IMG/VR virus record: IMGVR_UViG_2675903409_000014
DNA from: a virus
Lineage: Duplodnaviria; Heunggongvirae; Uroviricota; Caudoviricetes
Length of the DNA stretch: 42,284 nucleotides
Strand: one strand, 5' to 3'
A program made the position numbers and the translations under genes. The first letter of the stretch is position 1; the number at the start of each line of letters is the position of its first letter. Under the pieces are notes generated by a model. That model was given only the letters and a program-made list of their open reading frames with translations. It searched no databases and had not been told where the DNA came from. Positions 7,320 through 27,305 of this stretch are shown here, one piece after another.

Positions 7320-7329
7320 TTTGCGAATC

Positions 7330-8253: not shown

Positions 8254-8508
8254 ATGAACCAGAAAACACTTGAAGATGTAATCAAAACTGTTCGCGTTTC
8301 TGTTGTGGCCGACGTTTGTGGTGTCAGCCAAAGAGCAATCTACAAATGGATGGATAACGGAAAATTGCCTCGCACAGAATATACCGGCGAAACAAATTAC
8401 GCTGAAAAAATCGCTCATGCATCAAACGGATTATTTTCTGCTGATGTAATTTTAACTATTGGCAGAAATAAAACTACTACGAAAAAGCTGATGGGAGTTG
8501 ATTCATGA
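8254..8508 (+). CDS. ydaS: YdaS-like HTH protein (Cro-position)
   Basis: MNQKTLEDVIKTVRVSVVADVCGVSQRAIYKWMDNGKLPR...; SD gaggg upstream; alternative upstream start 8182 would overlap racR. Confidence 0.7.
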   Translation: MNQKTLEDVIKTVRVSVVADVCGVSQRAIYKWMDNGKLPRTEYTGETNYAEKIAHASNGLFSADVILTIGRNKTTTKKLMGVDS

Positions 8509-8927
8509 AAATCAAGCATGAGCACATCGAGTCAGTGTTGTTAGCCCTGGCAGCCGAAAAAGGGCAGGCATGGGTAGCCAATGCCATTACTGAAGAATAT
8601 CTGCGCCAGGGGGGCGGCGAATTGCCCCTGGTACCAGGCAAGGACTGGAATAATCAGCAGAATATCTATCACCGTTGGTTGAAAGGTGAAACGAAAACGC
8701 AAAGAGAAAAAATTCAGAAGCTGATCCCAGCAATTCTGGCAATCCTTCCGCGCGAGCTGCGTCACCGACTCTGCATCTTCGATACCCTGGAACGCCGTGC
8801 ATTACTGGCGGCGCAGGAAGCGTTAAGTACGGCAATTGATGCGCATGATGATGCAGTCCAAGCCGTTTACCGGAAAGCGCATTTCAGCGGCGGCGGGTCT
8901 TCCGACGATTCTGTCATTGTTCATTAA
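8505..8927 (+). CDS. ydaT: YdaT
   Basis: 140 aa MKIKHEHIESVLLALAAEKGQAWVANAITEEYL...; ATGA overlap with ydaS stop. Confidence 0.8.
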   Translation: MKIKHEHIESVLLALAAEKGQAWVANAITEEYLRQGGGELPLVPGKDWNNQQNIYHRWLKGETKTQREKIQKLIPAILAILPRELRHRLCIFDTLERRALLAAQEALSTAIDAHDDAVQAVYRKAHFSGGGSSDDSVIVH

Positions 8928-8990
8928 GCAAAAGTTTCCATGCTGTTTGTGCTTATTCTAAGCCACCGGGCAGCATCATACGGGGCAATT

Positions 8991-9810
8991 ATGGCCGCAT
9001 TACCATACATGCAACTGTACATAGCTGATTACCTGGCTGACACCATGCATTTGTCAGCAGAGGAGCATGGTGCGTATTTGTTGCTGATGTTCAATTACTG
9101 GCAAACAGGAAAGCCAATACCTAAAAACAGGCTGGCAAAAATTGCCCGTCTNNNNNNNNNNNNNNNNNNNNNNNNNNNNNNNNNNNNNNNNNNNNNNNNN
9201 NNNNNNNNNNNNNNNNNNNNNNNNNNNNNNNNNNNNNNNNNNNNNNNNNNNNNNNNNNNNNNNNNNNNNNNNNNNNNNNNNNNNNNNNNNNNNNNNNNNN
9301 NNNNNNNNNNNNNNNNNNNNNNNNNNNNNNNNNNNNNNNNNNNNNNNNNNNNNNNNNNNNNNNNNNNNNNNNNNNNNNNNNNNNNNNNNNNNNNNNNNNN
9401 NNNNNGAACATGATGTCAACACAAAGGCAACTAATAAAGATACAGATAAAGATCTAAAAACAGATCCCCCCCTAAATCCCCCCCGGGGGAATCGAGGTGT
9501 CAAAAAGTTTGACCCTCTGGATATTGCTTTGCCGAACTGGATTTCTGTCTCGCTTTGGCGTGAGTGGGTTGAATTTCGCCAGGCATTGCGAAAACCGATT
9601 CGAACGGAGCAGGGCGCTAACGGGGCGATACGGGAGCTGGAAAAATTCCGCCAGCAGGGTTTTTCACCTGAGCAGGTGATTCGACACAGCATCGCCAATG
9701 AATACCAGGGCTTGTTCGCGCCGAAAGGTGTTCGACCTGAGACGTTACTCCGACAGGTTAACACCGTCTCGTTACCGGATAGTGCGATCCCGCCAGGCTT
9801 CAGGGGGTAA
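8991..9810 (+). CDS. ydaU: YdaU-like replication protein (interrupted by N-run 9152-9405)
   Basis: N-terminal [40 protein letters not shown]... and C-terminal ...[36 protein letters not shown]...; frame break coincides with N-run. Confidence 0.75.
9152..9405. other. Undetermined sequence (N-run) inside ydaU
   Basis: 254 N. Confidence 1.
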
Positions 9811-9816
9811 CTGACC

Positions 9817-10563
9817 ATGAAAAATATTGCGACAGGCGACGTTCTTGAACGTATCCGCAGACTGGCCCCGTCACATGTAACCGCGCCATTCAAGACGGTA
9901 GCGGAGTGGCGCGAGTGGCAACTTTCCGAAGGCCAGAAACGTTGTGAGGAGATCAACCGTCAGAATCGTCAGTTGCGGGTGGAAAAAATTCTGAATCGCT
10001 CTGGCATCCAGCCATTGCACCGCAAATGCTCGTTTTCGAATTACCAGGTGCAGAACGAAGCGCAGCGATACGCGTTGAGTCAGGCGAAATCCATCGCTGA
10101 TGAACTGATGACCGGGTGTACAAATTTTGCGTTCAGCGGAAAACCTGGTACCGGGAAGAACCACTTAGCGGCAGCTATCGGGAATCGCCTGCTGAAAGAC
10201 GGTCAGACAGTGATTGTGGTTACCGTGGCTGATGTTATGAGTGCCCTGCACGCCAGCTATGACGATGGGCAGTCAGGCGAAAAATTTTTGCGGGAACTAT
10301 GCGAAGTGGATCTGCTGGTTCTTGATGAAATTGGCATTCAGCGCGAGACGAAAAACGAGCAGGTGGTGCTGCACCAGATTGTTGATCGCCGGACAGCGTC
10401 GATGCGCAGCGTGGGGATGCTGACAAACCTGAACTATGAGGTGATGAAAACATTGCTCGGCGAGCGGGTGATGGATCGCATGGTCATGAACGGCGGGCGC
10501 TGGGTGAATTTTAACTGGGAGAGCTGGCGTCCGAATGTTAGCCATTCGAGGGTTGTTAAGTAG
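9817..10563 (+). CDS. ydaV: YdaV, DnaC-like replication ATPase
   Basis: 248 aa with Walker A GKPGTGKNHLAAAIG and Walker B LLVLDEIG; matches recalled YdaV. Confidence 0.9.
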   Translation: MKNIATGDVLERIRRLAPSHVTAPFKTVAEWREWQLSEGQKRCEEINRQNRQLRVEKILNRSGIQPLHRKCSFSNYQVQNEAQRYALSQAKSIADELMTGCTNFAFSGKPGTGKNHLAAAIGNRLLKDGQTVIVVTVADVMSALHASYDDGQSGEKFLRELCEVDLLVLDEIGIQRETKNEQVVLHQIVDRRTASMRSVGMLTNLNYEVMKTLLGERVMDRMVMNGGRWVNFNWESWRPNVSHSRVVK

Positions 10564-10577
10564 TTTCAGGAGGATTT

Positions 10578-11000
10578 ATGGCGAAACCTTTTACTCCCGA
10601 ACAGCGGGAAGAACTGAAGACGCGAATTGTGGAACTCGTGCATCAGGACGGTCGGGTCACGATTCGGCAGTTGTCAGATGAAACAGGTATCAGTCGTGCG
10701 TCTGTCGGTCGCTTATGCATAGAACTGGTCGCAAGTGGTGATGTATATAATTCTGGCTACGGCTTATTCCCGTCTGAACAGGCTCGCAAGGACTGGCAAA
10801 GCGCCCGCAAAAAACTCTCGAGAGTAAAGGTGAGGAAACCGGTTGTTGTTGATCCGGACCTTATCTGGTCATTACCTGACGGAGAAATACGCCGCTACGA
10901 CAGGCGCCTGAATATAATCTGTCGCGAGTGCCGGAAGAGCGAAGCTATGCAGCGTGTACTGGCTTTCTATCAGGGTAATTTTCAGGAGGCGATACTGTGA
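10578..11000 (+). CDS. Hypothetical nin-region protein at the ydaW position (paralog of 14496..14912)
   Basis: 140 aa; SD aggagg 6 nt upstream of ATG; C-terminal approx 90 aa nearly identical to the second copy (GDVYNSGYGLFPSEQARKDW...RRYDRR.NIICRECRKSE). Confidence 0.7.
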   Translation: MAKPFTPEQREELKTRIVELVHQDGRVTIRQLSDETGISRASVGRLCIELVASGDVYNSGYGLFPSEQARKDWQSARKKLSRVKVRKPVVVDPDLIWSLPDGEIRRYDRRLNIICRECRKSEAMQRVLAFYQGNFQEAIL

Positions 11001-11414
11001 ATGAAATTAGCTATCAGGCTTCAATTACCGCTGGCATTCGCATCAAAGGAGAGGAGCATGGAAATAAAACCAGAAGATGAGTTAAGCAATATCGTTTTAT
11101 TTCCGGTAAAAGAGGATGACCCTCGTAATCAGGTTAATTTTCTTTATGAGCCATCGGAAAGACCATATTGCCATCACGCCTCTGTACGGGTTGACGAAAA
11201 AGAGCGTCAGGTCCGCTGTAAAATCTGCGGTGCGGTTGTGGAGCCGTTTGACTGGATGCTCTCTGTGGCAAAAAGAGAAACCAGACTGGCAGATGATGTA
11301 AGGCTATTGCGCCAGGAGGAACAGGAAAGGCGGAGAAATATAGAAAAGCTGATACAGATTGAGCGTAACGCGAAAGCGCGGATACGCAGGGCGACAAAAT
11401 CCAGAACTGAATAA
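11001..11414 (+). CDS. Hypothetical zinc-ribbon protein
   Basis: 137-aa ORF; CHH...RCKICG cysteine motif; alternative start at 11058 (MEIKPEDEL) with SD aaggagaggag. Confidence 0.55.
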   Translation: MKLAIRLQLPLAFASKERSMEIKPEDELSNIVLFPVKEDDPRNQVNFLYEPSERPYCHHASVRVDEKERQVRCKICGAVVEPFDWMLSVAKRETRLADDVRLLRQEEQERRRNIEKLIQIERNAKARIRRATKSRTE

Positions 11415-11561
11415 TTAAATTTAGCACTGTTAAAAATTTAATCCTTAACCGGAGGGATTTCTGCACCCTCAAATCATCAGGAGACCACCCGAAAGGGCGG
11501 GGAGCAGTCACACATCTGTTTCCGATAGCCCCGTTCTAATGCTACACTCTTTGATATTTTT

Positions 11562-12248
11562 ATGACCCCAATAAACATATTTATGACAGTTGCTGATTTC
11601 AAACGGCCCAAATTGGAGCTCCCAAACGGGGCAAACAAACTACTACTGCACTCTTGCTGTGCTCCATGTTCCGGTGAGGTGATGGAGGCGCTTCAGGCCT
11701 CGGGAATCGACTACACCATCTTTTTCTACAACCCGAACATTCATCCTCAGAAAGAGTATTTAATTCGTAAGGATGAGAATATTCGCTTTGCTGAACAACA
11801 CGGCGTGCCGTTTATTGATGCTGATTACGACACAGACAACTGGTTTGAACGAGCCAAAGGAATGGAATGGGAGCCCGAACGAGGGATCCGTTGCACCATG
11901 TGTTTTGACATGCGTTTTGAGCGGACAGCGCTGTACGCCGCTGAAAATGGTTTCAGTGTGATCAGCAGTTCACTGGGCATTTCACGCTGGAAAAATATGC
12001 AGCAGGTTAACGACTGTGGGCGGCGAGCCGTCGCGCATTATCCGGGCATGGTGTACTGGGATTATAACTGGCGCAAGCAGGGCGGCTCGTCCCGTATGAT
12101 TGAAATCAGCAAGCGCGAAAAATTCTATCAGCAGGAATATTGTGGCTGTGTGTATTCTCTGCGCGATACCAATCTACACCGCAAATCTCAGGGACGCCCT
12201 CTTATCAAAATTGGTCAACTCCACTACGGTAAAGAAGAGAAGGAGTGA
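11562..12248 (+). CDS. QueH/DUF208-like protein (epoxyqueuosine reductase family)
   Basis: 228 aa with [19 protein letters not shown] and QEYCGCVYS motifs recalled as hallmarks of DUF208/QueH. Confidence 0.7.
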
Positions 12249-12270
12249 TTTTATGGGGCACCTTTCTGAT

Positions 12271-12520
12271 NNNNNNNNNNNNNNNNNNNNNNNNNNNNNN
12301 NNNNNNNNNNNNNNNNNNNNNNNNNNNNNNNNNNNNNNNNNNNNNNNNNNNNNNNNNNNNNNNNNNNNNNNNNNNNNNNNNNNNNNNNNNNNNNNNNNNN
12401 NNNNNNNNNNNNNNNNNNNNNNNNNNNNNNNNNNNNNNNNNNNNNNNNNNNNNNNNNNNNNNNNNNNNNNNNNNNNNNNNNNNNNNNNNNNNNNNNNNNN
12501 NNNNNNNNNNNNNNNNNNNN
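12271..12520. other. Undetermined sequence (N-run) after QueH-like gene
   Basis: 250 N. Confidence 1.
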
Positions 12521-12696
12521 AGTGACGGCACTGGTAACGAGGAAAGACCTCTGTGAGGTACGAATCCGAACCGGCCAGACGGAGGTCGCTGTCTTCGTAG
12601 ACTACGAATCCAGGAAGTAAGAGTGACCGGGCGGGGAGCTGATCCCATCCCCGCCCACCTCTGATGTGTCAGGCATCCTCAACGCACCCGCACTTA

Positions 12697-12742
12697 ACCC
12701 GCCCATCGCTGTGATCTCTCAGCGTTTCGGCGGGTTTTTTGT
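12697..12742 (+). terminator. Rho-independent terminator
   Basis: Stem CCCGCC (12698-12703) / GGCGGG (12729-12734) with inner CGCTG/CAGCG pairing, followed by TTTTTTGTTGTTT. Confidence 0.6.
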
Positions 12743-12869
12743 TGTTTATTTCCGGTGAATTTGATTCGCGCACCTTCGCAGATAGAATCGACTCACTTAA
12801 GTAGCGCGCAGGGAGAAGAGGGATGGACCCCGAACAGGGGAGAGCTATTTATCTGGAAGGATTCTGAAG

Positions 12870-13157
12870 ATGAAAATCGAAGAATTGCGTGAAATTTTTA
12901 GTGAAAATGGCCTCTATGCTGTGCGCGTTGAGAATGGAGCGATTGTCAGCCATTGCCGCATTAGATGTTTGCAATCTCAACAAAGGAAGAGCGGTGCTGT
13001 GTTATTTTATTTTTGTAATGGACTTCTGACGGACGGTTTTATTTTGCGTGAGGACGAATTTGTCACATCATTACGGGTTTTGAAAGAGATTGGTTTTAAG
13101 GCTGGTTTTCTGCTTTTGCTGAAGAATAAACTCATCTACAATCTTGAGCAGGATTGA
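12870..13157 (+). CDS. Hypothetical protein
   Basis: 95-aa ORF with SD ggaagga 8 nt upstream; upstream TTGATT-16-TAGAAT promoter-like elements. Confidence 0.5.
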   Translation: MKIEELREIFSENGLYAVRVENGAIVSHCRIRCLQSQQRKSGAVLFYFCNGLLTDGFILREDEFVTSLRVLKEIGFKAGFLLLLKNKLIYNLEQD

Positions 13158-13195
13158 ACTCCTGCTGTGTAACACCGTGCCACCGGAGAAAGCCG

Positions 13196-13444
13196 ATGGC
13201 ACATATACAACTGGTCAAACAAACCTCTTCCGGATTACTTCTCCCGGCGACGCCGGAGAGTTGCGATTTTCTGCATCAAATCAAAATAGGTGAGTGGATA
13301 CACGCAGACTTTAAGCGTGTGTGTAACTACGCATTCCACAAGCGTTTTTTCAAACTCCTGCAACTGGGTTTCGATTACTGGACTCCGGTCGGTGGGGCGA
13401 TCACGCCTCGCGAACGAAAACTGGTGTCCGGTTTCGTTGATTAC
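13196..13444 (+). CDS. nin-region protein, partial copy (3' part masked by N-run), paralog of 18863..19462
   Basis: MAHIQLVKQTSSGLLLPATPESCDFLHQIKIGEWIHADFKRV...; about 97 percent nt identity to 18863-19111. Confidence 0.55.
13196..13444 (+). repeat. Direct repeat copy A (about 249 bp visible, truncated by N-run)
   Basis: About 8 mismatches in 249 nt versus 18863-19111. Confidence 0.8.
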
Positions 13445-13694
13445 NNNNNNNNNNNNNNNNNNNNNNNNNNNNNNNNNNNNNNNNNNNNNNNNNNNNNNNN
13501 NNNNNNNNNNNNNNNNNNNNNNNNNNNNNNNNNNNNNNNNNNNNNNNNNNNNNNNNNNNNNNNNNNNNNNNNNNNNNNNNNNNNNNNNNNNNNNNNNNNN
13601 NNNNNNNNNNNNNNNNNNNNNNNNNNNNNNNNNNNNNNNNNNNNNNNNNNNNNNNNNNNNNNNNNNNNNNNNNNNNNNNNNNNNNNNNNNNNNN
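13445..13694. other. Undetermined sequence (N-run) inside nin-region repeat gene copy A
   Basis: 250 N. Confidence 1.
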
Positions 13695-13718
13695 AATTTT
13701 TACCGGGAGGAAATTTTT

Positions 13719-14480
13719 ATGGAGACTGTTTTTGACGCACTGAAAGCAATGGGAAAAGCCACATCCATAGAACTTGCTGCGCGACTTGATATCAGTCGTG
13801 AAGAAGTGCTGAACGAACTATGGGAACTGAAAAAAGCTGGTTTCGTTGATAAAAGCGCGTACACCTGGCGTGTGGCTGATAACAACGTTCAGCAGGAACA
13901 GCCAATGCAGGCAGAACTGCCGGAAGAAACCACCACGGCAACTGTAGTGAAAATCTCAGAGTGCGATTTAACCGCGACGATTGAACAACGCGGACCACAA
14001 ACGGCGGATGAACTGGCTACGCTGTTCGGTACAACATCCCGCAAAGTTGCTTCAACGCTGGCAATGGCAATCAGCAAAGGACGCCTGATTCGCGTAAACC
14101 AGAACAGTAAATTTCGTTACTGCATGCCGGGCGATAATTTACCAGCAGAGCCGAAAGCTGCATCGGTAGCGGAAACTGATGGTAAAGCCTTTCCTCAGCC
14201 AGCCGGTGTTGCGTTACCAGTACAGGAAGCGGCAACACAGGAAGATATTAAAACAGAAACTGTGGCGGACATTGTGCAGTCGCTGCCATCGTTTACTGAA
14301 ACGCAAGCGGATGACCTAGTTTTACCATCGCTGCATATGGCAAACCGCGAACTGCGTCGGGCGAAAAATCATGTCCAGAAGTGGGAGCGAGTCTGCGCCG
14401 CGCTGCGGGAGCTGAACAAGCACCGGGATATTGTCCGACAGATTGTCGATTCCTCCAGTCGTATTGTGTCGGAAAAGTGA
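13719..14480 (+). CDS. Hypothetical protein, probable winged-helix N-terminus and acidic linker
   Basis: 253 aa [45 protein letters not shown]...; SD gggagg upstream; first codon right after N-run. Confidence 0.65.
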
Positions 14481-14495
14481 TTGCCGGAGGCGCTT

Positions 14496-14912
14496 ATGGC
14501 AAAAGTTTTTACACAGGAAGAGCGTGAAAAAATTAAGGAGCAGGTTGTTGAGTTGGTACGCCAGAGTGGGCGCGAGACGTTAAGGCAACTGGAGGCCAAG
14601 ACAGGTGCGACAAGATATCTGATGAGCATTCTTGCCAGAGAGTTGGTTGCCAGTGGCGATGTATACAACTCTGGCTATGGGTTATTCCCGTCTGAACAGG
14701 CTCGTAAGGATTGGAAAAACGCCCGCAAAAAACTATCCAGGGCAAAGGTGAAAAAAACGGTTGTGGTTGATCCTGACCTTATCTGGTCATTACCAGACGG
14801 AGAAATACGCCGCTATGACAGGCGTCAGAACATAATCTGTCGCGAGTGCCGGAAGAGTGAAGTTATGAAACGTGTACTGGCATTTTATCAAGGAAATCTT
14901 CGGTATTTATAG
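14496..14912 (+). CDS. Hypothetical nin-region protein, second paralog of 10578..11000
   Basis: MAKVFTQEEREKIKEQVVELVRQSGRETLRQLE...; SD ggagg upstream of ATG at 14496 (track ORF starts at TTG 14481). Confidence 0.7.
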   Translation: MAKVFTQEEREKIKEQVVELVRQSGRETLRQLEAKTGATRYLMSILARELVASGDVYNSGYGLFPSEQARKDWKNARKKLSRAKVKKTVVVDPDLIWSLPDGEIRRYDRRQNIICRECRKSEVMKRVLAFYQGNLRYL

Positions 14913-15050
14913 ACGTTACTAGATCAAAGAGCATTAGTTCATATGTAAATTGACATTTTTCTGGCACAGGGGAGAGCTAGCGTGGTTGTCCGCTTTGTGC
15001 CAATAGCGGACATTGCTGGCTCATGGTATGTTAGTTTAAGGAGGCAGGTT

Positions 15051-16073
15051 ATGCCCTGTATTTCGCTGTGGTATAATAGTTGCGCAATTGATACAAGGGA
15101 GCGTTACATCGTGAAAATTGTTTTCGAGGTTAATGGAAAGAAAGTTCCACTAAAATCTTTAAAATACATAAGCAAAAAAGATCAACTCGAAGTAATGAAA
15201 AACTGGTTCTTTGAAAACTTTGAAGATCCGGCAAATGCTTGTCCGTATGAAAGTAGAGAAGGTGGCTATGCTTACATATATGGCGGGCCGTATGATGCGA
15301 GCGAAGAACTACAATCCATCTTCGGTCAATATGTTAAATCTGAGTATATTGAGGAATTAGTAGATGAATTACAAACACAATGTTTTGACTGGTCTGGAAA
15401 CTCAAATAATATAGATGATTGGTACGATGATGATATCTACGACGCTGTAACGTCTTCCGGTAATCCGTATTTAAAATTCATTGATAATATCGATAAAATA
15501 AAAAAACTTGCAAAAGATAAAACTGAACAACAGCAAAAAAACCACTTGCTTAGTTTGCTCTACACGAATGTTATTACAGCTTTGGAAACGCTTTATGTTG
15601 AGCTATTCATTAATTCTATAGAGAAAGATGATGTCTACATAGCCAATTGTATAGAAAAAGGTAAGACTGAATTTAAAGTAAGCAAAGATATTGCTGCGTT
15701 GCCTTTCAAGGGTGAACCCATCGAGAAAATTAGGGGAGAGCTAATCAGGTCAATCAAGGAACACTTGATCAGTGCAAGCTGGCATAGCACTAAAAAGGTA
15801 ATCGACCGCTATGAAGCTACATTCGATATAAAAGTACAAAAAGACTGTCCGATAGAAGCTATTGAATTGGCAACCCTCAATCGAAATCACTTAGTGCATC
15901 GTGGTGGAAAGGATAAAGAAGGGAACCTCGTAGTGATTACAGACCAGGATCTTGAAACGCTGATTGAAAATGCATCGAACCTGGCAATTATGCTCTACAA
16001 CAGTTTAAATGTAGCAACGAATAAAACCACCATTTTGCAACCAGATGACAAACCGTTCATTCATGAATTTTAA
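15051..16073 (+). CDS. Uncharacterized protein A of A+T-rich cassette; C-terminal HEPN-like Rx4H motif
   Basis: Strong SD taaggagg 6-7 nt before ATG 15051; alternative GTG 15111 preceded by TGgTATAAT and aagggag; A+T-rich; motif LNRNHLVHRG. Confidence 0.65.
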   Translation: MPCISLWYNSCAIDTRERYIVKIVFEVNGKKVPLKSLKYISKKDQLEVMKNWFFENFEDPANACPYESREGGYAYIYGGPYDASEELQSIFGQYVKSEYIEELVDELQTQCFDWSGNSNNIDDWYDDDIYDAVTSSGNPYLKFIDNIDKIKKLAKDKTEQQQKNHLLSLLYTNVITALETLYVELFINSIEKDDVYIANCIEKGKTEFKVSKDIAALPFKGEPIEKIRGELIRSIKEHLISASWHSTKKVIDRYEATFDIKVQKDCPIEAIELATLNRNHLVHRGGKDKEGNLVVITDQDLETLIENASNLAIMLYNSLNVATNKTTILQPDDKPFIHEF

Positions 16074-16088
16074 TAGCGCAGGTCATAC

Positions 16089-17090
16089 ATGGATATTCGC
16101 ACACGAAAGACAAAATTTTTAGAGTCGTTAGATTCAACTGAAGTGATACGCAAAGCAGTAAGTCTCGCTATAGATTGCATTATTGATAATCATAATAGTA
16201 ATGAAGATACCCCCTTAGTTATTACCAGCTATGATGATCTCTGTAGAATCCAGGTGCTAAATTATGTACAGGAGTTTTGCGAAGCTGCATTCCCTGATAT
16301 GGATGAATATTACTTTAGTCCTAACATACTTCGCATCAACGGCAAGACTAGTGAAGAAGCTTGTATTAACTTAATTAAACTCTTAAGAAGTACAAAAGGC
16401 ATGCTATTCTGGTCCGATGCCCCATCGTGGTTCGCTAGCCTCCCCGACGGATTATTCCATGTTGTTAACATTGATCAAAAAATCGTTACTCGCGGCCTTA
16501 ATAAGAAAAACTCTAAGCCGACAATAATCAATAAAGATTACAGTGTAGATACACTACTATCAGAGCTATTTTTGAATGGCGCACACATGGAGCAACCCAA
16601 CGTACACAACGTTTCTGAGGGAAACATGAAGTTCTATGATGAATGCCATGCTGGATTAATCAGACCAATACCCGCTCCAATAGGCGCGTCATACGATGAA
16701 GAGATCACAATTAATTCTCCAGATTGGCAAAAGCTCGCGTGTGTAGCTTTACGCCGCTATCAGTCGAAGGAATGTCATGACGGAATGCAATGGGATACAA
16801 CCGATCATGGTTGGACTGATGTAATCGCGTATCCATTCGTCGAAGAAATACAATCAATGGATAATAGTGGTTATCGACAATGTTTAGTTGGGCTGGTCAC
16901 AATAAACAATTCAAATGCAAATTCTCCGTACCTATCTACCGTTTGGATACATCCATTTTATCGCAGGAGAGGGTTATTAAGTAAGTTATGGCCAAAATTA
17001 CAAGAGTTATATGGAAGTAACTTCGAAATTGAGCGACCTAATGAAAATATGAAAGCATTTCTGAAAAGTGCGAAACACGCAGATTACTAA
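16089..17090 (+). CDS. Uncharacterized protein B of A+T-rich cassette; C-terminal GNAT-like motif
   Basis: 333-aa ORF 15 nt after gene A; VWIHPFYRRRGLLSKLWPKL resembles GNAT acetyl-CoA motif A. Confidence 0.7.
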   Translation: MDIRTRKTKFLESLDSTEVIRKAVSLAIDCIIDNHNSNEDTPLVITSYDDLCRIQVLNYVQEFCEAAFPDMDEYYFSPNILRINGKTSEEACINLIKLLRSTKGMLFWSDAPSWFASLPDGLFHVVNIDQKIVTRGLNKKNSKPTIINKDYSVDTLLSELFLNGAHMEQPNVHNVSEGNMKFYDECHAGLIRPIPAPIGASYDEEITINSPDWQKLACVALRRYQSKECHDGMQWDTTDHGWTDVIAYPFVEEIQSMDNSGYRQCLVGLVTINNSNANSPYLSTVWIHPFYRRRGLLSKLWPKLQELYGSNFEIERPNENMKAFLKSAKHADY

Positions 17091-17642
17091 TTTATGAATC
17101 AGTCTGTGGAGTTAGGGTTGGTGTGAACAAGTAGGGTAAGAGCCTCAACGTGATGCTATGCCGACCTGCTCCCTGAGAATTCACACAGAAGGCTGCTAGC
17201 AATGTCTGCAGATCGCTCAAAGCGGACTAAAATGTTGGCTTGTTTCTGACTTAGAGCATTTAAGGAAGTGCTGGTGGTGACTGGTTGTTGTGTTCCATTT
17301 CTACAGAATAAAATCACAGAAACTATACCCAATAGTTGTATTGAATCACTGACGAGACAGCCTCATATTTATCAGGACTGGTGTGCGTCTAATACAGGGG
17401 GTTGTCGTGCTGGTTCTCAAATGTGCGCTGGCTATTGCGGCTGTAATGGCAATTTATTGTCTTGCTGTTGTTCTTATGGAGCGGCTTTCTGATTGATTAC
17501 ATACTGGCTAGAAAAAAGGTGTTACCTTGGTTTATCTTTGTCCGGCAAGGTGCGCTCATTAATCTTAAGTAAATTTATTGCTCAAGTATTCAGATTACTT
17601 CTTATGGTTGAAGTCTCCTGTCAATGTAGAACCAATATATTT

Positions 17643-17681
17643 ACAAAAATGAGACCCGTCGGGGATAGCCCTGCCGGGTCT
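17643..17681 (-). terminator. Rho-independent terminator of the YeaR-like gene
   Basis: Minus-strand hairpin AGACCCG...CGGGTCT followed by CATTTTTG, just past the stop at 17711. Confidence 0.55.
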
Positions 17682-17710
17682 GACTGTTAAAGCATTTTTA
17701 ATATGATCAT

Positions 17711-18049
17711 CTATTTTTTGGTGCTATAGACTTTTTCGCCCGAAAAGTCTGGAGCGACCCAAAAGTTAATATTAAACTGAGCATCATCGCTTAGTTCAAC
17801 ACGGTGCCAGTATTGTGGTGGGCTTGTTGCAAAAGCGCCAGCATTAATGACTACTTTTATCTCCGGTTCAGTAGCATTCTCATCAGTAAAACCATAATAT
17901 GTTACAGTGCCTTCCATTACGCACAACTGCCCAAAAACACCTGCTGCTGTATTATGATGTGTTAATAACGCTGAAGGTACGTTCTCTTTTGTGAAGAACG
18001 GAGTTGAGCGTTTGATTACCCAATCTTTAGGAATTCTCTTGTGTGTCAT
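17711..18049 (-). CDS. YeaR-like DUF1971 (TehB-related cupin-like) protein
   Basis: KRSTPFFTKENVPSALLTHH...VMEGTVTYYGFTDENATEPE...FNINFWVAPD parallels recalled YeaR; SD ggagg before MTHKRIP start. Confidence 0.7.
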   Translation of the reverse strand: MTHKRIPKDWVIKRSTPFFTKENVPSALLTHHNTAAGVFGQLCVMEGTVTYYGFTDENATEPEIKVVINAGAFATSPPQYWHRVELSDDAQFNINFWVAPDFSGEKVYSTKK

Positions 18050-18862
18050 AACCACCTCCTCCAAAACATGCATTAAAAATGCATCTTTTGGAGGGTTATG
18101 TCAAGCTGTTATGAAACACATAATTGATATGTTGATTAGAGGAGAAGATAGAATAAATATGGTTGTTTTTCGTATAACTATTTGTTTTACTTTTAGTTTA
18201 TGCATTCTGTGTGTTAGGAATAAGTTATTAAAGTTTAATCAAAAAATCTCGATGTAGTCCACATAGATTACTGTTACTGAACCTTATTGTGTGTATTAGT
18301 TGTGTTCTGAAATTTCAGCTTAATTATTTATGATGTATTTTTTAACGATAAATATTTTCCCAGGATACCTTTACTGTGTATATAAATAAATTATATACGC
18401 ATAAATAATGTAAAGGCGTCCTTTTAGATATATCTTATCAAATGTTAATGACTTGAGTGGGAAATATGATTCCAGCAACTTATCATGTGGCTACTTTATA
18501 AAAATAATGCCCATATAAAACAACAAGCGAAAAGGATTACGGATAAAAAAGGAGCGAGATGTGCGAACTTGTTATTTTCCATGTTTAACCACCTTAAATA
18601 ATTGATGATGACGGGATGATTGCATCTGTAATGCTTTTATTGAAATGTTATGATAAAAAAGAACTTTTGCATAACATTAAAATGTAATTTATCTAATCGT
18701 TTTTAATAATAAGTGTCGTATTTCTATCCTTGTACCAGCTATTTGATATGTAGTGTTTGTTCATGCTATGTGGGGCTTTACACCATAGCCAGTTTATTTA
18801 TACTTTATTCGTCAGCCTGAACAACTGGCATCTGCTGCGCTGCGCCATCGAGAGATTGAGAA

Positions 18863-19111
18863 ATGGCGCATATACAACTGGTCAAACAAACCTCTTCTGG
18901 TTTACTTCTCCCGGCGACGCCGGAGAGTTGCGATTTTCTGCATCAAATCAAAATAGGTGAGTGGATACACGCAGACTTTAAGCGTGTGCGTAACTACGCA
19001 TTCCACAAGCGTTTTTTCAAACTCCTGCAACTGGGATTCGATTACTGGACTCCGGTCGGTGGGGCGATCACGCCTCGCGAACGAGAACTGCTGTCTGGTT
19101 TCGTTGATTAC
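18863..19111 (+). repeat. Direct repeat copy B
   Basis: Matches 13196-13444 at about 97 percent identity. Confidence 0.8.
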
Positions 19112-19462
19112 CTGTGCGAATCAGTTGGTCGGGAACACACGCCAGCCCTGAGTGATGCCGCAGAGCAATACCTTAACACCGTTGCGACTCGTAGAACCCG
19201 GGATACGGCGTTGCTAAAGTCGTTTGAGGCTTTCCGCGAGTGGGTAACCATTCAGGCCGGATTTTACACCGAGCATATTTATCCGGACGGTAGCCGTGGG
19301 CGTCGGGCAAAATCCATCGCTTTTGCGAATATGGACGAAGTCGAGTTTCAGCAGGTTTATAAATCTGTACTGAATGTGCTGTGGAACTGGATTCTGTTCC
19401 GTAAATTCTCCTCTCAGGAGGAAGTTGAAAATGTGGCCGCACAACTACTGGAGTTTGCGTAA
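18863..19462 (+). CDS. nin-region protein, full-length copy (YbcN-position; family uncertain)
   Basis: 199 aa; immediately upstream of YbcO-like gene; N-terminal 83 codons duplicated at 13196. Confidence 0.75.
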   Translation: MAHIQLVKQTSSGLLLPATPESCDFLHQIKIGEWIHADFKRVRNYAFHKRFFKLLQLGFDYWTPVGGAITPRERELLSGFVDYLCESVGREHTPALSDAAEQYLNTVATRRTRDTALLKSFEAFREWVTIQAGFYTEHIYPDGSRGRRAKSIAFANMDEVEFQQVYKSVLNVLWNWILFRKFSSQEEVENVAAQLLEFA

Positions 19463-19752
19463 TGGTGAATTTACGTAAAGCGGCTAAAGGCCAGATGTGC
19501 CAGATCAGAATCCCTGGCTACTGCAATCACAATCCCGAAACCTCTGTGCTGGCGCATTACAGGCTGGCGGGGACGTGCGGAACAGCGACAAAACCACATG
19601 ATATGCAGGCGGCGATAGCCTGTAGCTCATGCCACGATCTAATCGACGGGCGGGTAAAAACCAGCGATTACACCAAAGAAGAATTGCGCCTGATGCATGC
19701 TGAAGGGGTTTTTCGCACACAAGAAATCTGGAGAAAGAAAGGTCATTTATGA
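19462..19752 (+). CDS. YbcO-like DUF1364 Cys-rich putative nuclease
   Basis: 96 aa MVNLRKAAKGQMCQIRIPGYCNHNPETSVLAHYRLAGTCGTATKPHDMQAAIACSSCHDLIDGR...; pattern as recalled for DLP12 YbcO. Confidence 0.75.
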   Translation: MVNLRKAAKGQMCQIRIPGYCNHNPETSVLAHYRLAGTCGTATKPHDMQAAIACSSCHDLIDGRVKTSDYTKEELRLMHAEGVFRTQEIWRKKGHL

Positions 19753-20273
19753 TTTACCCAACGAATACAGNNNNNNNNNNNNNNNNNNNNNNNNNNNNNN
19801 NNNNNNNNNNNNNNNNNNNNNNNNNNNNNNNNNNNNNNNNNNNNNNNNNNNNNNNNNNNNNNNNNNNNNNNNNNNNNNNNNNNNNNNNNNNNNNNNNNNN
19901 NNNNNNNNNNNNNNNNNNNNNNNNNNNNNNNNNNNNNNNNNNNNNNNNNNNNNNNNNNNNNNNNNNNNNNNNNNNNNNNNNNNNNNNNNNNNNNNNNNNN
20001 NNNNNNNNNNNNNNNNNNNNTGATGCAGAGGCGTTATGTATTGATCGAGTCATAAGTGAGGTGCTGGCAGAGCATCCAGGATTGATTTGCATTCTCCGGC
20101 AACGCTATGAAGGGCGGGGGATGACTAAGCGCAAAATGGCTGAATTGCTAAATGATGCACACCCAGAGTGGTGTTTTAGCACATGCGAAAAACGGATTGC
20201 TAATTGGTTAGCTGTTGCTGAGTATGCCCTATATATTCCCATGCGTGAATCATTTGCTGAGAAAATGGCTTGA
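19749..20273 (+). CDS. Late-gene antiterminator Q-like (interrupted by N-run 19771-20020)
   Basis: Position immediately upstream of late leader and terminator; ATGA overlap with previous stop; C-terminus ...QRYEGRGMTKRKMAELLNDAHPEWCF...; family by position mainly. Confidence 0.6.
   Translation: MIYPTNTXXXXXXXXXXXXXXXXXXXXXXXXXXXXXXXXXXXXXXXXXXXXXXXXXXXXXXXXXXXXXXXXXXXXXXXXXXXXXXXXXXXXDAEALCIDRVISEVLAEHPGLICILRQRYEGRGMTKRKMAELLNDAHPEWCFSTCEKRIANWLAVAEYALYIPMRESFAEKMA
19771..20020. other. Undetermined sequence (N-run) inside Q-like gene
   Basis: 250 N. Confidence 1.
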
Positions 20274-20353
20274 TTTCTTACGTATAAACTGCTTCAATTT
20301 TGCTATGCTTCGCAAAGCTGTATCGCGAGGCGGATTGCAGACATGGACATCGT

Positions 20354-20381
20354 AAAAAAACCGCTTAATGCGGTTTTTTTA
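20354..20381 (+). terminator. tR'-like rho-independent terminator of the late leader
   Basis: A-run, stem ACCGC, loop TTAAT, stem GCGGT, then T7; about 80 nt after the Q-like stop. Confidence 0.8.
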
Positions 20382-20698
20382 CGTCAGGAAAGCAGGGGAG
20401 AATGCTGCTAGTTGGGCAACTGGTCTTTCTGCTCCAAATTATAACAGAGACCAGTTATAGTTTCGGTGCTGTGTTTTTTTTACAATATTGTGATAACACA
20501 TTGCTGGCGGGAGTTTTGATATTTCTTGGCAGGGGCTGATGATGCGTTATCCTGATGTCGTCAACTCATATAAAATGAGATGAGAGATCATTGCAGGGTG
20601 GTTTGTAATTCGCTGTTTAGCGGGACAATATGTTGTCTGATACAAGACACCCGACGCCTCAGATTACTATAATAAAGACGAAGCATCCTTTGTATTGA

Positions 20699-20726
20699 CC
20701 AACCGCCTGTTTAGGCGGTTCTTTTT
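20699..20726 (+). terminator. Second rho-independent terminator downstream of tR'
   Basis: AACCGCC-tgtttag-GGCGGTT followed by CTTTTT. Confidence 0.55.
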
Positions 20727-21317
20727 GGGCTGGTTTATTGTATGCCAAATGATTATTAAAAAGGTTGTGTTAATAACAAGATCCGAAATAATATGCCTGC
20801 ATATTTTTATCTTGCTTATATTCTGCATATTGTGCATAGCAGGCTCATCCCTGCAATCAAAACTGTATGATGAGTATTTTTTGTTTTCCTTTTTTCCAGT
20901 CATCTGATGATGACCTGCTTCTTTTTAATCCGGATCGACATCAGTTTTTTAAGATAATTCCTGCGAGTTATATGCATAAATGCCACAAACTCCGCATTTT
21001 ATGTGGTTGGGAGTTGCCGGGCGCGCAGTGAGTTTGCTAAGAAAACTCCTGCATGGTGAATCCCCCTGTGCGGTGGGGTGATACCATTAACCTTTTCTGT
21101 CGCCGACAGGTATCACGAACATTTTGTTCACCGGGAGGCACCCGGCACCATGCACTTCAATAGATTCTCTCCACATTATGGATATTCTTTCAGAATATCC
21201 CACGCAGACTTTGTGTAAATGTTAACAAATGTGCGTTTTATTTGATCTGATTCGCTGTTTGAGCGTCCAAAACAACGGTATATATAATCCTTTACTATAT
21301 GACATATGTGAGGAAAA

Positions 21318-21746
21318 ATGGGTTTTCGTAGCGCATCAATTCTTACGTTGATTATTAGTGGGATTATTATCGGGTGCACTGATGCTGTATCGACAAATTA
21401 TCATGACCGTACATCATATTACTCCGATAAAGCAATAGAGACACAGTATGTGAGTTCATCTGAACGTACTTCTGATGTTAGTGAGGATATCCGTCTGTAT
21501 GCCCATCAAATCAAGAGCGCCATCGAAAAACAGTTCGGGGATGCGAGTAAGTATTCAGGAAAAGAGTGTACACTGAGAATGCATATGGCCCCGAATGGCC
21601 TTCTACTGGAGGTTAAAAGAGAAAGTGGAGACCTCGATTTATGTCGTGAAGCGATGAATGCGATAAAGAATGCTGATATACCTGCCCCCCCTTCGCCGGA
21701 AGTATATAAAGTATTTCAAAATGGGGTGCTGGATTTTAAACCCTGA
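21318..21746 (+). CDS. Lipoprotein with TolA C-terminal domain (TolA-III)-like fold, copy 1
   Basis: Signal peptide and lipobox IIGC; mature part YAHQIKSAIEKQFGDASKYSGKECTLRMHMAPNGLLLEVKRESGDLDLCREAMNAIKNADIPAPPSPEVYKVFQNGVLDFKP parallels recalled E. coli TolA C-terminus; TATATAAT about 25 nt upstream. Confidence 0.8.
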   Translation: MGFRSASILTLIISGIIIGCTDAVSTNYHDRTSYYSDKAIETQYVSSSERTSDVSEDIRLYAHQIKSAIEKQFGDASKYSGKECTLRMHMAPNGLLLEVKRESGDLDLCREAMNAIKNADIPAPPSPEVYKVFQNGVLDFKP

Positions 21747-21896
21747 TATTTATTGTTTTGTAATAAACGGTTTCGGCTTAGGTTTGTTCTGACACAGCTA
21801 CGGCACTGAGCTAAATTTAGCGGATAGTCAGCTCTGAGCCAGTGGCGGACGTAACAACTACTATTGCTGAGATTTTAATGGATTGAGGAGCAAGAA

Positions 21897-22292
21897 GTGG
21901 GATTAAAGAAAATCGTTATGTTGACTTTTTGGGTCGGTTTTGTTGCGGGATGCACACCTTTACACCCTTCAGATTGCCACAAAACTACTGCTACAGGTAG
22001 TTGCAGTTCAGGACGCTGGGATGATCAGGATGAATGGGGGGCGCAAGCGCGGGGAATCAGAGCTGCAATTAATGCCAAACTTGATGAGCCGCATAACTGG
22101 AAAGGGAAAAAATGCAGGTTGCATATGGAATTCTCTCAGGATGGCACGGCGTTAAAAATATCTACCAGTAACGGTGATAAAGCCTATTGCGAAGCGATAA
22201 AGTCCGCAGCTCATAAAGCCAAATTTCCGGCCTTCAACAATCCGGAAGTCTACAGAGATTTTCAGAAATCTGGCTTTGACATGCGAGGTTAG
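21897..22292 (+). CDS. Lipoprotein with TolA-III-like domain, copy 2 (diverged paralog)
   Basis: GTG start with SD gaggag; lipobox VAGC; ...GKKCRLHMEFSQDGTALKISTSNGDKAYCEAIKSAAHKAKFPAFNNPEVYRDFQ follows the same TolA-III pattern. Confidence 0.75.
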   Translation: MGLKKIVMLTFWVGFVAGCTPLHPSDCHKTTATGSCSSGRWDDQDEWGAQARGIRAAINAKLDEPHNWKGKKCRLHMEFSQDGTALKISTSNGDKAYCEAIKSAAHKAKFPAFNNPEVYRDFQKSGFDMRG

Positions 22293-22417
22293 CTCTTCAA
22301 TTACTATATCTCATTCATAGCAAACTGACAGATTTGATGATGTTCTATATACGAAACCTGTGATGTCAAGTCTGAGCTAATACAAATAAACATAATATCA
22401 GAGAAATACATTTTATT

Positions 22418-22440
22418 AGCTCGCTACGGCGAGCTTTTTA
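22418..22440 (+). terminator. Rho-independent terminator upstream of lysis genes
   Basis: AGCTCGC-tacg-GCGAGCT followed by TTTTA. Confidence 0.7.
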
Positions 22441-22543
22441 TATTGCATCGTCTCCAGCATATATATCAATTAAGGCTCTGATTGATGTGTCTGAAAGCCT
22501 ACACATAATAACTATGCCATCCGTTCCGTGCGGAGGTGAGGCT

Positions 22544-22759
22544 ATGAAATCCATGGACAAAATTTCAACAGGCATTGCCTACGGCACCTCCGCAGGCAGT
22601 GCTGGCTACTGGTTTTTACAGTTGCTCGATAGAGTAACTCCGTCACAGTGGGCTGCAATCGGTGTGCTGGGTAGTCTGGTATTTGGCCTGCTGACGTACC
22701 TGACAAACCTTTATTTCAAGATTAAAGAAGATAAGCGCAAGGCTGCGAGAGGTGAATAA
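22544..22759 (+). CDS. Holin, phage 21 S21 / EssD-like pinholin
   Basis: 71 aa [71 protein letters not shown]; SD ggaggtga; upstream in-frame Met in the 90-aa ORF. Confidence 0.85.
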
Positions 22760-23208
22760 TGCCTCCATCATTACGAAAAGTCGTTGCTGCTGCTATTGGT
22801 GGCGGAGCAATTGCTATAGCATCAGTGTTAATCACTGGCCCAAGTGGTAACGATGGTCTGGAAGGTGTCAGCTACATACCATACAAAGATATTGTTGGTG
22901 TATGGACTGTATGTCACGGGCATACNNNNNNNNNNNNNNNNNNNNNNNNNNNNNNNNNNNNNNNNNNNNNNNNNNNNNNNNNNNNNNNNNNNNNNNNNNN
23001 NNNNNNNNNNNNNNNNNNNNNNNNNNNNNNNNNNNNNNNNNNNNNNNNNNNNNNNNNNNNNNNNNNNNNNNNNNNNNNNNNNNNNNNNNNNNNNNNNNNN
23101 NNNNNNNNNNNNNNNNNNNNNNNNNNNNNNNNNNNNNNNNNNNNNNNNNNNNNNNNNNNNNNNNNTCGTGAGATTGAGCGTGAAGTCTGTTTGTGGGGGC
23201 AGCAATGA
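22759..23208 (+). CDS. SAR endolysin, lysozyme (interrupted by N-run 22926-23165)
   Basis: N-terminus [55 protein letters not shown] is a Gly/Ala-rich signal-anchor-release domain; C-terminus [13 protein letters not shown]; TAATG overlap with holin. Confidence 0.85.
22926..23165. other. Undetermined sequence (N-run) inside endolysin gene
   Basis: 240 N. Confidence 1.
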
Positions 23209-23669
23209 GCAGAGTCACCGCGATTATCTCCGCTCTGGTTATCTGCATCATCGTCTGCCTGTCATGGGCTGTTAATCATTACCGTGATAACGCCATTACC
23301 TACAAAGCCCAGCGCGACAAAAATGCCAGAGAACTGAAGCTGGCGAACGCGGCAATTACTGACATGCAGATGCGTCAGCGTGATGTTGCTGCGCTCGATG
23401 CAAAATACACGAAGGAGTTAGCTGATGCGAAAGCTGAAAATGATGCTCTGCGTGATGATGTTGCCGCTGGTCGTCGTCGGTTGCACATCAAAGCAGTCTG
23501 TCAGTCAGTGCGTGAAGCCACCACCGCCTCCGGCGTGGATAATGCAGCCTCCCCCCGACTGGCAGACACCGCTGAACGGGATTATTTCACCCTCCGGGAA
23601 CGACTGGTAATGATGCAGGCCCAACTTGAAGGTGCTCAGCAATACATAACCGAGCAGTGTTTAAAGTAA
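23205..23669 (+). CDS. rzpR: Rz inner-membrane spanin
   Basis: N-terminal TM segment then coiled-coil; ATGA overlap with endolysin stop; symbol by position only. Confidence 0.75.
23425..23610 (+). CDS. rzoR: Rz1 outer-membrane lipoprotein spanin, embedded in Rz in the +1 frame
   Basis: [24 protein letters not shown]... lipobox VVGC, proline-rich mature part; wholly inside Rz. Confidence 0.75.
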
Positions 23670-23806
23670 AATCTTAACTACAATATGATTCATTTTGATG
23701 ATTGTTTCATAAGGAACAGTGAAGTAAGATCTAAGAGGAGTTAAATTTTATACAGTATAATCATAATATTGCAGCAAGGTGGTTATAATTGAAAGAATAT
23801 TTAGAT

Positions 23807-25264
23807 ATGAATACATCTCATGTAAGAGTTGTTACTCATATGTGTGGGTTCCTGGTTTGGCTCTATAGTCTTTCAATGTTGCCACCAATGGTTGTAGCAT
23901 TGTTTTATAAAGAAAAAAGCCTGTTCGTTTTCTTTATAACTTTCGTTATATTTTTTTGCATTGGTGGCGGAGCGTGGTATACAACTAAGAAATCTGGCAT
24001 TCAATTACGTACCCGTGATGGGTTTATTATAATTGTAATGTTTTGGATTTTGTTTTCTGTTATTAGTGCATTCCCTTTATGGATTGACTCAGAACTTAAT
24101 TTAACGTTCATTGATGCTCTGTTTGAAGGGGTTTCTGGAATAACAACAACAGGAGCAACTGTAATTGATGATGTTAGTTCATTACCTCGGGCATATTTGT
24201 ACTATCGGTCACAGTTAAATTTTATAGGTGGTTTAGGAGTTATTGTTCTGGCGGTTGCAGTATTGCCATTATTGGGTATTGGTGGTGCAAAGCTTTATCA
24301 GTCAGAAATGCCGGGGCCATTTAAGGATGACAAACTCACTCCCCGCCTGGCCGATACGTCACGGACACTGTGGATAACTTATTCTTTATTAGGTATTGCT
24401 TGTATTGTCTGTTATAGACTTGCAGGAATGCCTTTGTTTGATGCTATTTGTCACGGGATTTCCACAGTTTCGCTTGGTGGTTTCTCAACTCATAGCGAGA
24501 GTATCGGATATTTTAATAACTATTTGGTTGAGCTGGTGGCTGGTTCTTTTTCCCTGCTATCGGCTTTCAACTTCACTCTTTGGTATATTGTTATTAGCAG
24601 AAAAACGATAAAACCTTTAATCAGAGATATTGAACTTCGTTTCTTTCTGTTAATAGCCTTAGGGGTGATCATTGTTACCTCTTTCCAGGTCTGGCATATA
24701 GGTATGTATGACTTGCATGGAAGTTTTATTCATTCGTTTTTTCTTGCCAGCTCCATGCTCACTGATAATGGTTTAGCTACGCAGGATTATGCAAACTGGC
24801 CCACGCACACGATAGTGTTTTTGCTGTTGTCAAGTTTCTTTGGGGGATGTATAGGTTCAACCTGTGGTGGAATTAAGTCACTTCGATTTCTTATACTTTT
24901 CAAACAAAGCAAACACGAGATAAATCAGCTTTCTCATCCCAGAGCGTTGTTGAGTGTAAATGTAGGAGGGAAGATAGTTACAGATCGTGTAATGAGGTCT
25001 GTATGGAGTTTCTTTTTTCTTTATACTCTCTTCACGGTGTTTTTTATACTGGTGTTAAATGGTATGGGATATGATTTTCTTACATCATTTGCAACAGTGG
25101 CTGCATGTATTAATAATATGGGATTAGGTTTTGGGGCTACTGCATCGTCATTCGGAGTGCTTAATGACATTGCAAAATATTTAATGTGCATAGCTATGAT
25201 TCTTGGTCGCCTTGAAATTTATCCTGTTATTATATTGTTTTCAGGTTTTTTTTGGCGCTCCTAA
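23807..25264 (+). CDS. trkG: TrkG potassium uptake protein
   Basis: 485 aa from MNTSHVRVVTHMCGFLVWLYSLSMLPPMVVALFYKEKSLFVFF...; multi-pass membrane protein; A+T-rich. Confidence 0.9.
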   Translation: MNTSHVRVVTHMCGFLVWLYSLSMLPPMVVALFYKEKSLFVFFITFVIFFCIGGGAWYTTKKSGIQLRTRDGFIIIVMFWILFSVISAFPLWIDSELNLTFIDALFEGVSGITTTGATVIDDVSSLPRAYLYYRSQLNFIGGLGVIVLAVAVLPLLGIGGAKLYQSEMPGPFKDDKLTPRLADTSRTLWITYSLLGIACIVCYRLAGMPLFDAICHGISTVSLGGFSTHSESIGYFNNYLVELVAGSFSLLSAFNFTLWYIVISRKTIKPLIRDIELRFFLLIALGVIIVTSFQVWHIGMYDLHGSFIHSFFLASSMLTDNGLATQDYANWPTHTIVFLLLSSFFGGCIGSTCGGIKSLRFLILFKQSKHEINQLSHPRALLSVNVGGKIVTDRVMRSVWSFFFLYTLFTVFFILVLNGMGYDFLTSFATVAACINNMGLGFGATASSFGVLNDIAKYLMCIAMILGRLEIYPVIILFSGFFWRS

Positions 25265-27302: not shown

Positions 27303-27305
27303 CTG

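Follow-up and report, generated by a model that had tools for sequence, protein, structure and literature searches.

Accessory modules from two lambdoid lineages in the nin region of a Rac-type prophage, and a possible IS600-bridged duplication

Overview

The DNA analysed here, IMG/VR record IMGVR_UViG_2675903409_000014 (42,284 nucleotides [nt]; this whole stretch is called the window), is a complete-looking Rac-type prophage with an integrase gene at 1-1236, recET, kilR, sieB, ydaT/U/V, lysis genes, trkG and tail genes. Its nin region carries accessory genes of two origins: the resident Rac block (module R) and a block of a different lambdoid lineage (module X), joined to the Rac left arm by a crossover. 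To the right of module X lies an assembly gap, and in sister genomes the last gene of the module, DUF1367, is cut by the insertion sequence (IS) IS600; both single-module forms of the prophage are present among related contigs. The region is a product of ordinary lambdoid prophage mosaicism together with IS600 activity. Whether the two modules stand in series in one prophage, as a putative partial duplication of ~5.9 kb bridged by IS600, we regard as evenly poised; we infer both the physical adjacency of the modules and the single IS600 that would bridge them.

Two pairs of repeated genes

Direct-repeat families of at least 40 nt were sought across the whole 42-kb window, and two pairs were found, one in DUF1367 and one (D1) in DUF977, with no others. 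The DUF1367 pair (copy A, 13196-13444; copy B, 18863-19111) is on the same strand and matches over 249 nt with 8 mismatches (96.8% identity), at nt 6, 36, 39, 127, 174, 223, 229 and 234; the longest stretch free of mismatches is the 87 nt from nt 40 to 126. The two copies start 5,667 nt apart, and their homology opens exactly at the ATG, with unrelated sequence upstream of each. Judged on its sequence, the pair cannot be explained by chance. Copy A ends at an N-run of exactly 250 N, so the 249-nt length of the repeat is set by the gap and not by biology. These values agree with the initial annotation of this DNA, which had described repeats about 97% identical, with about 8 mismatches, the first copy running into Ns.

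Copies A and B share 80 of 83 codons, and copy A is a fragment, not a complete member of PF07105. Comparison of the X and R alleles of DUF1367 over their full length gives 38 differences in 600 positions, 7 of them in the first 249 nt and 31 beyond, where the remaining 351 nt are 91% identical. We read copies A and B as the starts of two allelic forms of DUF1367, a single lambdoid gene. Repeat D1 pairs 10718-10983 with 14636-14901 (266 nt, 86% DNA identity). The two DUF977 proteins, encoded from 10578 and 14496, are 75% identical overall and ~89% identical across the C-terminal 90 residues; the initial annotation had contrasted diverged N-termini with near-identical C-termini in these two 140-residue paralogs, and the contrast holds, although "near-identical" was generous. 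The gene content that it had listed between the DUF1367 repeats was recovered by gene calls and Pfam matches. This 5.4-kb interval counts within it the 250 N of the scaffold gap.

Origins of the two modules

The window is colinear with the annotated Rac prophage of E. coli JP538 (recT, recE, racC, kilR, sieB, ydaT/U/V, lysis genes and trkG). Positions 2541-10538 and 13695-27470 align with it in five blocks at 99.3-99.97% identity, with 99.3% in the ydaU-ydaV block and at least 99.86% in the others. An ATP_bind_3 (PF01171) gene, presumably ttcA, adjoins int in sister loci. Three segments of the window (2935-9151, 13695-19770 and 20021-22925) are 100% identical to L022, a 52-kb N-free contig that carries module R only, and the complete copy B gene is likewise 100% identical to that of the L022 Rac. 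JP538 and L022 alike have DUF1627 immediately after ydaV, and then DUF977, a two-gene cassette, DUF1971 and DUF1367; the 5.4-kb segment that had been taken for cargo is therefore the ordinary content of this type of Rac.

The DNA that is extra to the normal Rac layout is 10442-13444, not the 5.4-kb segment. Module X (3.1 kb) comprises the 3′ end of ydaV, DUF977, a zinc-ribbon open reading frame (ORF), QueH, hok, rem and the 5′ part of DUF1367. Positions 10400-13444 match, at 99.9% identity, a lambdoid prophage other than Rac that sits at modC/ybhA in FDAARGOS_944 and has a complete DUF1367 with DUF1364 and DUF1133 after it; positions 12521-13444 are 100% identical to prophage remnants of Shigella-type genomes. 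Copy A is X-type at the diagnostic positions 174-234.

The window is a mosaic, with Rac blocks that are 99.3-100% identical to loci L001 and L022 and an X block that is 99.9-100% identical to L002 and L006. The breakpoints fall in stretches that the parents share: the left one within 10300-10441, and the right one, which is seen in contig L025 only, within nt 40-126 of DUF1367, that of the window being hidden by the gap. The initial annotation had favoured recombination between related prophages over a recent tandem duplication, and the comparison agrees. A tandem duplication of recent date, spanning ydaV to DUF1367 and followed by divergence and gene turnover, would share with the data the order of the end genes (DUF977 ... 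DUF1367) and their direct orientation. It is refuted by the mutual divergence of the copies, from 3% (5′ part of DUF1367) to 14% (DUF977), by the unrelated genes between them, and by the closest match of each copy, at 99.9-100%, being in a different lineage; we give it practically no credence. Temperate phages and resident prophages are known to exchange DNA by relaxed homologous recombination between diverged sequences, including through the RecT of Rac (De Paepe et al. 2014, PMC3945230).

The left joint in ydaV

The ydaV gene was mapped mismatch by mismatch against the Rac allele of L001 and that of the X remnant in L006. The gene is Rac-type up to 10299, the last X-discordant base, and X-type from 10442, the first Rac-discordant base. 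By these mismatches, the foreign block has its left boundary at a clean homologous crossover within ydaV. Only 20 contigs, every one of them a draft, encode exactly this chimeric ydaV protein, and a scan of IMG/VR for the chimeric ydaV gave no matches.

Source assembly and N-runs

The window is the same sequence as locus L027 (CWUA01000014.1, from draft assembly GCA_001252735.1), with 0 mismatches at 20,563 compared positions and identical N-runs. There are seven of these runs, of 233-255 nt each, and the public gene calls of CWUA01000014.1 are interrupted at them; DUF1367, for example, is called as a protein of 83 aa. N-runs of similar length also occur, at other positions, in sister assemblies of this accession series. 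The N-runs, which the initial annotation had marked as something to resolve, are scaffold gaps of the public short-read draft itself. Their addition as masks was considered and rejected, because the runs are present in the public contig, the gene calls break there, and the sisters have similar ones. A literature search by the assembly accessions found no paper.

At nine testable gaps in these assemblies, N-runs of 233-280 nt cover 241-288 nt of collinear unique sequence. Those of the window at 3596-3850 (recE), 9152-9405 (ydaU), 12271-12520 (hok), 19771-20020 (DUF1133) and 22926-23165 (lysozyme) each stand for unique collinear sequence of 241-288 nt. It is unusual for a de novo assembly to leave gaps of such even size in unique DNA. 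At 23185-23216, less than 50 nt from the edge of the gap at 22926-23165, the window departs from its otherwise identical sisters at four clustered positions, which probably reflect assembly errors made where a contig ended.

The right joint and IS600

In sister genomes with flanks 100% identical to those of the window, the X-allele DUF1367 runs to nt 307 and is then cut by an element that is a 99.9% match to annotated IS600. These cut alleles carry a private single-nucleotide polymorphism (SNP) at nt 127, as copy A does. The junction of DUF1367 nt 307 with IS600 is identical in L010/L026, L031, L038 and the chromosome-scale Shigella-type loci L006 and L007, and the N-free contigs L032 and L034 stop exactly at this boundary. 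The simplest filling of the gap, the rest of copy A, was rejected: 351 nt would be needed, and in the sister genomes IS600 interrupts the gene at nt 307. A scan of IMG/VR for the DUF1367/IS600 junction returned three contigs, none of which extends past the IS, and a contig scan with the end of copy A returned Shigella-type X remnants only. IS600 is present in 3,467 of 5,426 closed E. coli genomes, at a median of 2 places.

In L006 and L007 the X remnant lies between two direct copies of IS600, the right-hand one of which leads to int′-modC. As an observation on these two loci, the block at ~1-5900 ('ydaU-ydaV-DUF977-QueH-hok-rem-DUF1367') is composite-transposon-like and could excise or move as a unit.

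Contig L026 shows what may lie on the far side of the element. Its interval equivalent to 13445-13694 is 2,847 nt long and consists of IS600, 11 N, and 'ydaT-ydaU-ydaV, of which 1,529 nt are identical to the first copy and the sequence afterwards is R-type. This second copy starts at window-equivalent 8899, 3 nt from a true IS600/ydaT junction in L035, an N-free contig of an unrelated genome in which the end of IS600 abuts ydaT at window-equivalent 8896. That L026 and L035 share this ydaT position suggests an old or recurrent IS600 site. In the IMG/VR contig L035 (4186-5473 and flanks) a single IS600 has 'ydaT on one side and, on the other, a truncated terminase gene with head genes farther out. 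A tandem double lysogen, with two complete prophages, was rejected for L026, since its second copy begins 3 nt from a genuine IS600/ydaT junction.

The orientation of IS600 on DUF1367′ in L026 fits one element serving both half-junctions. The flanks of the IS are AAT and GGT, which is no target duplication, so the IS would stem from recombination between two IS600 copies and not from simple insertion. The IS600/ydaT junction gave no matches in a metagenome scan.

The joint between the two modules itself differs from scaffold to scaffold. In the window and L027 it runs from DUF1367 nt 249 through 250 N to the last 2 nt of ydaV; in L026, from IS600 nt 1129 through 11 N to 'ydaT at 8899-equivalent, followed by ydaU-ydaV; in L030, from QueH nt 417 through 1 N to ydaU at 9518-equivalent; in L033, from QueH nt 624 through 250 N to the last 66 nt of ydaV; and in L041, of an unrelated lineage, from about IS600 nt 976 through 1 N to the last 19 nt of ydaV. 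The five cannot all be literal, and none is therefore taken at face value. The window's gap most likely stands for something other than 250 nt of unique sequence.

Proposed structure and single-module relatives

We propose that module X would have entered a Rac-type prophage by homologous recombination inside ydaV, bringing an X-allele DUF1367 that would be a pseudogene, ending at nt 307 against IS600. The gap would then contain the rest of the DUF1367 fragment, one IS600, and a second 'ydaT-ydaU-ydaV copy, and the order would be: left arm, ydaT-ydaU-ydaV(R/X), module X, DUF1367′, IS600, 'ydaT-ydaU-ydaV(R), module R, DUF1367, right arm. Recombination between the two ydaT′-ydaV copies of such a structure would give a Rac-only prophage, and recombination between DUF1367 copies A and B would give a module-X-only prophage with a hybrid DUF1367.

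Prophages of both descriptions exist. L022 has module R only, as noted above, and L025, a 48-kb N-free contig, has module X only; its arms are 100% identical to the window and the bracketed segment is absent. Its DUF1367 is a hybrid, X-type at nt 6, 36 and 39 and Rac-type from nt 127 on, which places the crossover in the 87 nt from nt 40 to 126, where copies A and B have their longest run of identity. L022 and L025 thus correspond to the pair of outcomes that homologous recombination through the repeat pairs of the proposed duplication would yield. The initial annotation had predicted that the repeats could mediate loss of the intervening segment, and the deletion product does exist in L025, with the limit that a double crossover with external DNA gives the same sequence. 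Both single-module forms are obtainable by double crossover with incoming phage DNA, and they accordingly do not prove adjacency.

A further claim, that the repeats bracket a 5.4-kb cargo segment, is unproven. The bracketing is drawn across the scaffold gap, and the copy A fragment is IS600-truncated in sisters; the five inconsistent joints, the closed genomes (0 of 5,426, below) and the identity of the segment as the usual content of Rac also leave it without support.

Our fuller proposal is that the strain holds the bridged duplication, with a QueH/hok module and a module of HEPN-like, GNAT-like and TehB-like genes, and segregates to single-module forms, and so would be a captured intermediate of exchange. 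We put this at a little under an even chance.

Several observations weigh against the duplication. An exact tandem repeat of 1.5 kb should be unstable and quickly lost. The two modules in series were found in 0 of 5,426 closed E. coli genomes in two megablast searches, in which pieces joined across as much as ~4 kb would count as one place; the IS600/ydaT junction was found in none of these genomes, and no assembly reached has contiguous read-through of the X-to-Rac joint. The five joints, mutually inconsistent and always passing through Ns, look systematic and not informative. The lengths of the N-runs come within ~50 nt of the truth at all nine testable gaps, which argues for a short joint. 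The L041 scaffold places module R after an X remnant that chromosome-scale relatives place elsewhere. Finally, N-free contig L032 spans the left arm and ydaT-ydaV and enters module X without interruption, and that strain, which has module X and IS600, is thus without a second identical copy.

Part of this evidence would be met by a scaffolding artefact, in which both modules are in the genome at two non-adjacent loci. One locus would read Rac left arm, module X, DUF1367′, IS600 and other DNA, and the other would read other DNA, IS600, 'ydaT-ydaU-ydaV, Rac module and right arm, the two having been strung together through the shared ydaV and IS600. Contigs that end in a multicopy IS600 yield ambiguous links, the five inconsistent joins all pass through Ns, and the tandem is in no closed genome. 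The X remnant of L041 is a case in point: it is 99.7-100% identical to that of L006, where IS600 and then int′-modC follow, yet it is scaffolded through one N to the end of ydaV and DUF1627. Against this explanation, L022 and L025 have 100% identical arms and are one-step deletions from the tandem, whereas distant loci would need large deletions or several events, and both IS600 half-junctions are oriented as for one shared element. Moreover, at least seven scaffolds (L026 and three look-alikes, L027, L030 and L033) place the Rac module after X and never other DNA, L028 excepted. On balance we consider such an artefact unlikely, though it deserves serious weight.

In L028, the sequence after QueH continues into the nin region of a different prophage. 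The same contig has, at 13530-13847, a 318-nt element resembling a miniature inverted-repeat transposable element, with 93-nt terminal inverted repeats that are 99% complementary, between a 185-nt 5′ fragment of DUF1367 and hok.

The scaffold could also be taken literally, with ~250 nt between copy A and the ydaV end that precedes DUF1627, the repeats flanking 5.4 kb and no IS600 present. This gains from the nine testable gaps, at which the N-runs do cover 241-288 nt of collinear unique sequence. It is opposed by the sisters with 100% identical flanks, which show IS600 at nt 307 of the same allele down to its private SNP at nt 127, and by the "measured" joints of L033 (250 N) and L030 (1 N), which imply different structures in near-identical strains and make this class of joint unreliable. 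A unique 250-nt joint should, in addition, assemble in at least one of ~20 related contigs, and it is seen in none. We regard the literal scaffold as very improbable.

Slightly lower still we rank a mixed template, in which Rac-only and module-X variant cells, or cross-contamination, supplied paths that the assembler placed in series. Both single-module variants do exist with identical arms, and it is a well-known mistake of scaffolding to string alternative haplotypes one after the other. The both-module pattern is nonetheless found in several independent isolates and in two sublineages 4 SNPs apart in module X, and the second copy in L026, with its start 3 nt from a genuine IS600/ydaT junction, would be absent from a simple mix of the two known variants.

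Genes of the two modules

The features of the region are listed in Table 1. Module X has a QueH gene beside a hok toxin gene, and a gene of the queuosine pathway is an unusual accessory for a lambdoid nin region.

Table 1. Features of the ydaV-to-DUF1364 region of the window.
Feature	Coordinates	Strand	Evidence or remark
ydaV (DnaC/IstB-like replication ATPase), chimeric	9817..10563	+	Pfam IstB_IS21/Bac_DnaA
Left crossover interval, 142 nt identical in both parental ydaV alleles	10300..10441	.	Mismatch maps
DUF977 (Ren-like position), X allele	10578..11000	+	PF06163 E=1e-33; 100% identical to sister and X-type loci
137-aa zinc-ribbon ORF	11001..11414	+	phrog_1621; hypothetical in FDAARGOS_944 annotation
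QueH (epoxyqueuosine reductase)	11562..12248	+	PF02677 E=2e-65; annotated QueH in L002
Scaffold gap	12271..12520	.	Covers 261 nt including hok (HOK_GEF) in gap-free L010/L026 and L002
Rem-family 95-aa gene, last complete gene of module X	12870..13157	+	PF27490; 100% identical in sister loci
Copy A: first 249 nt (83 codons) of X-allele DUF1367	13196..13444	+	8/249 mismatches to copy B
Scaffold gap, unsequenced X-to-Rac joint	13445..13694	.	Same N-run in L027
DUF1627 winged-helix, first gene of module R	13719..14480	+	PF07789 E=2e-100
DUF977 (Ren-like), Rac allele	14496..14912	+	PF06163 E=3e-31, phrog_142
320-aa protein, A+T-rich cassette	15111..16073	+	Weak PF18870 match
333-aa cassette partner, weak GNAT-like C-terminus	16089..17090	+	PF00583 E=9e-4, below cut-off
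DUF1971/TehB-N-terminal-like	17711..18073	-	PF09313 E=3e-26; NCBIfam TehB partial match
Copy B: intact DUF1367, NinB/Orf position	18863..19462	+	PF07105 E=6.4e-98, residues 1-198/198; phrog_319
DUF1364/YbcO, common right arm resumes	19462..19752	+	JP538 annotation, gene calls

The two cassette genes of module R (15111-16073 and 16089-17090) have 37-40% G+C. The 320-aa protein has a sub-threshold match to PF18870 (HEPN/RES-NTD1) and an R-x4-H motif, RNHLVH, in its translation, and homologues of the 320/340-aa protein carry PF18870 and PF18735 (RiboL-PSP HEPN); it is predicted to be of HEPN type. Wherever it occurs, the 333-aa gene has the 320/340-aa gene as its neighbour, and mobile elements of three kinds carry the pair: it was found after DUF977 in lambdoid prophages at the ompW site, in Rac, and in a non-lambdoid genomic island (loci including L015-L024). 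The genomic-island copy adjoins dynamin-like and patatin genes. Searches of PADLOC 2.0, NCBIfam and PDB sequences returned nothing usable for the pair. The cassette is a plausible candidate for a toxin or defence pair. A promoter and terminator scan of the segment between the DUF1367 repeats did no better than on shuffled sequence.

In the right arm, two paralogous genes with TolA C-terminal domains (21318-21746 and 21897-22292) precede the genes for holin, lysozyme and Rz and are so annotated in JP538.

Comparison with known systems

The mechanism invoked here is already known, since homologous recombination at conserved flanking genes and IS-mediated joining are textbook phage biology. If the bridged duplication is real, it would be a natural and testable case of accessory-module swapping in a lambdoid prophage, with parent-like, intermediate and both resolved forms among sequenced isolates. 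As a caution, repeats that appear to bracket cargo in a draft may be two alleles of one phage gene on either side of a scaffold gap.

The region resembles other instances of lambdoid mosaicism (PMC3945230) in that blocks from two lineages are joined in conserved genes and in that Rac encodes RecE and RecT. It differs in that both modules occur together across a gap, the usual clean replacement being seen only in the sister contig L025. Its layout also recalls the P-ren-nin region of lambda with its "moron" slot: a ydaV (DnaC-like) loader, the Ren-like DUF977, variable genes, the NinB/Orf-like DUF1367, YbcO and the Q-like DUF1133 follow the same plan, and modules X and R alike take up the P-ren-[variable genes]-ninB position. 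The families are not, however, lambda's own ren and ninB, and the equivalence is suggested by PHROG profiles (phrog_142 and phrog_319) and position.

With the IS-bounded prophage remnants of Shigella and E. coli the window's relatives share the nt 307/IS600 junction, which is the same as in L006 and L007, and the IS600/ydaT junction at 8896, present in L035. In L006 and L007, however, IS600 leads to int′-modC and not to a Rac module, as the proposed X-to-Rac bridge would. Lastly, the N join, its variable position among sisters and the shared flanks (ydaV and IS600) are like those of false serial placement in short-read scaffolds, although an artefact alone leaves unexplained both the presence of the two modules and the existence of both one-step recombinants.

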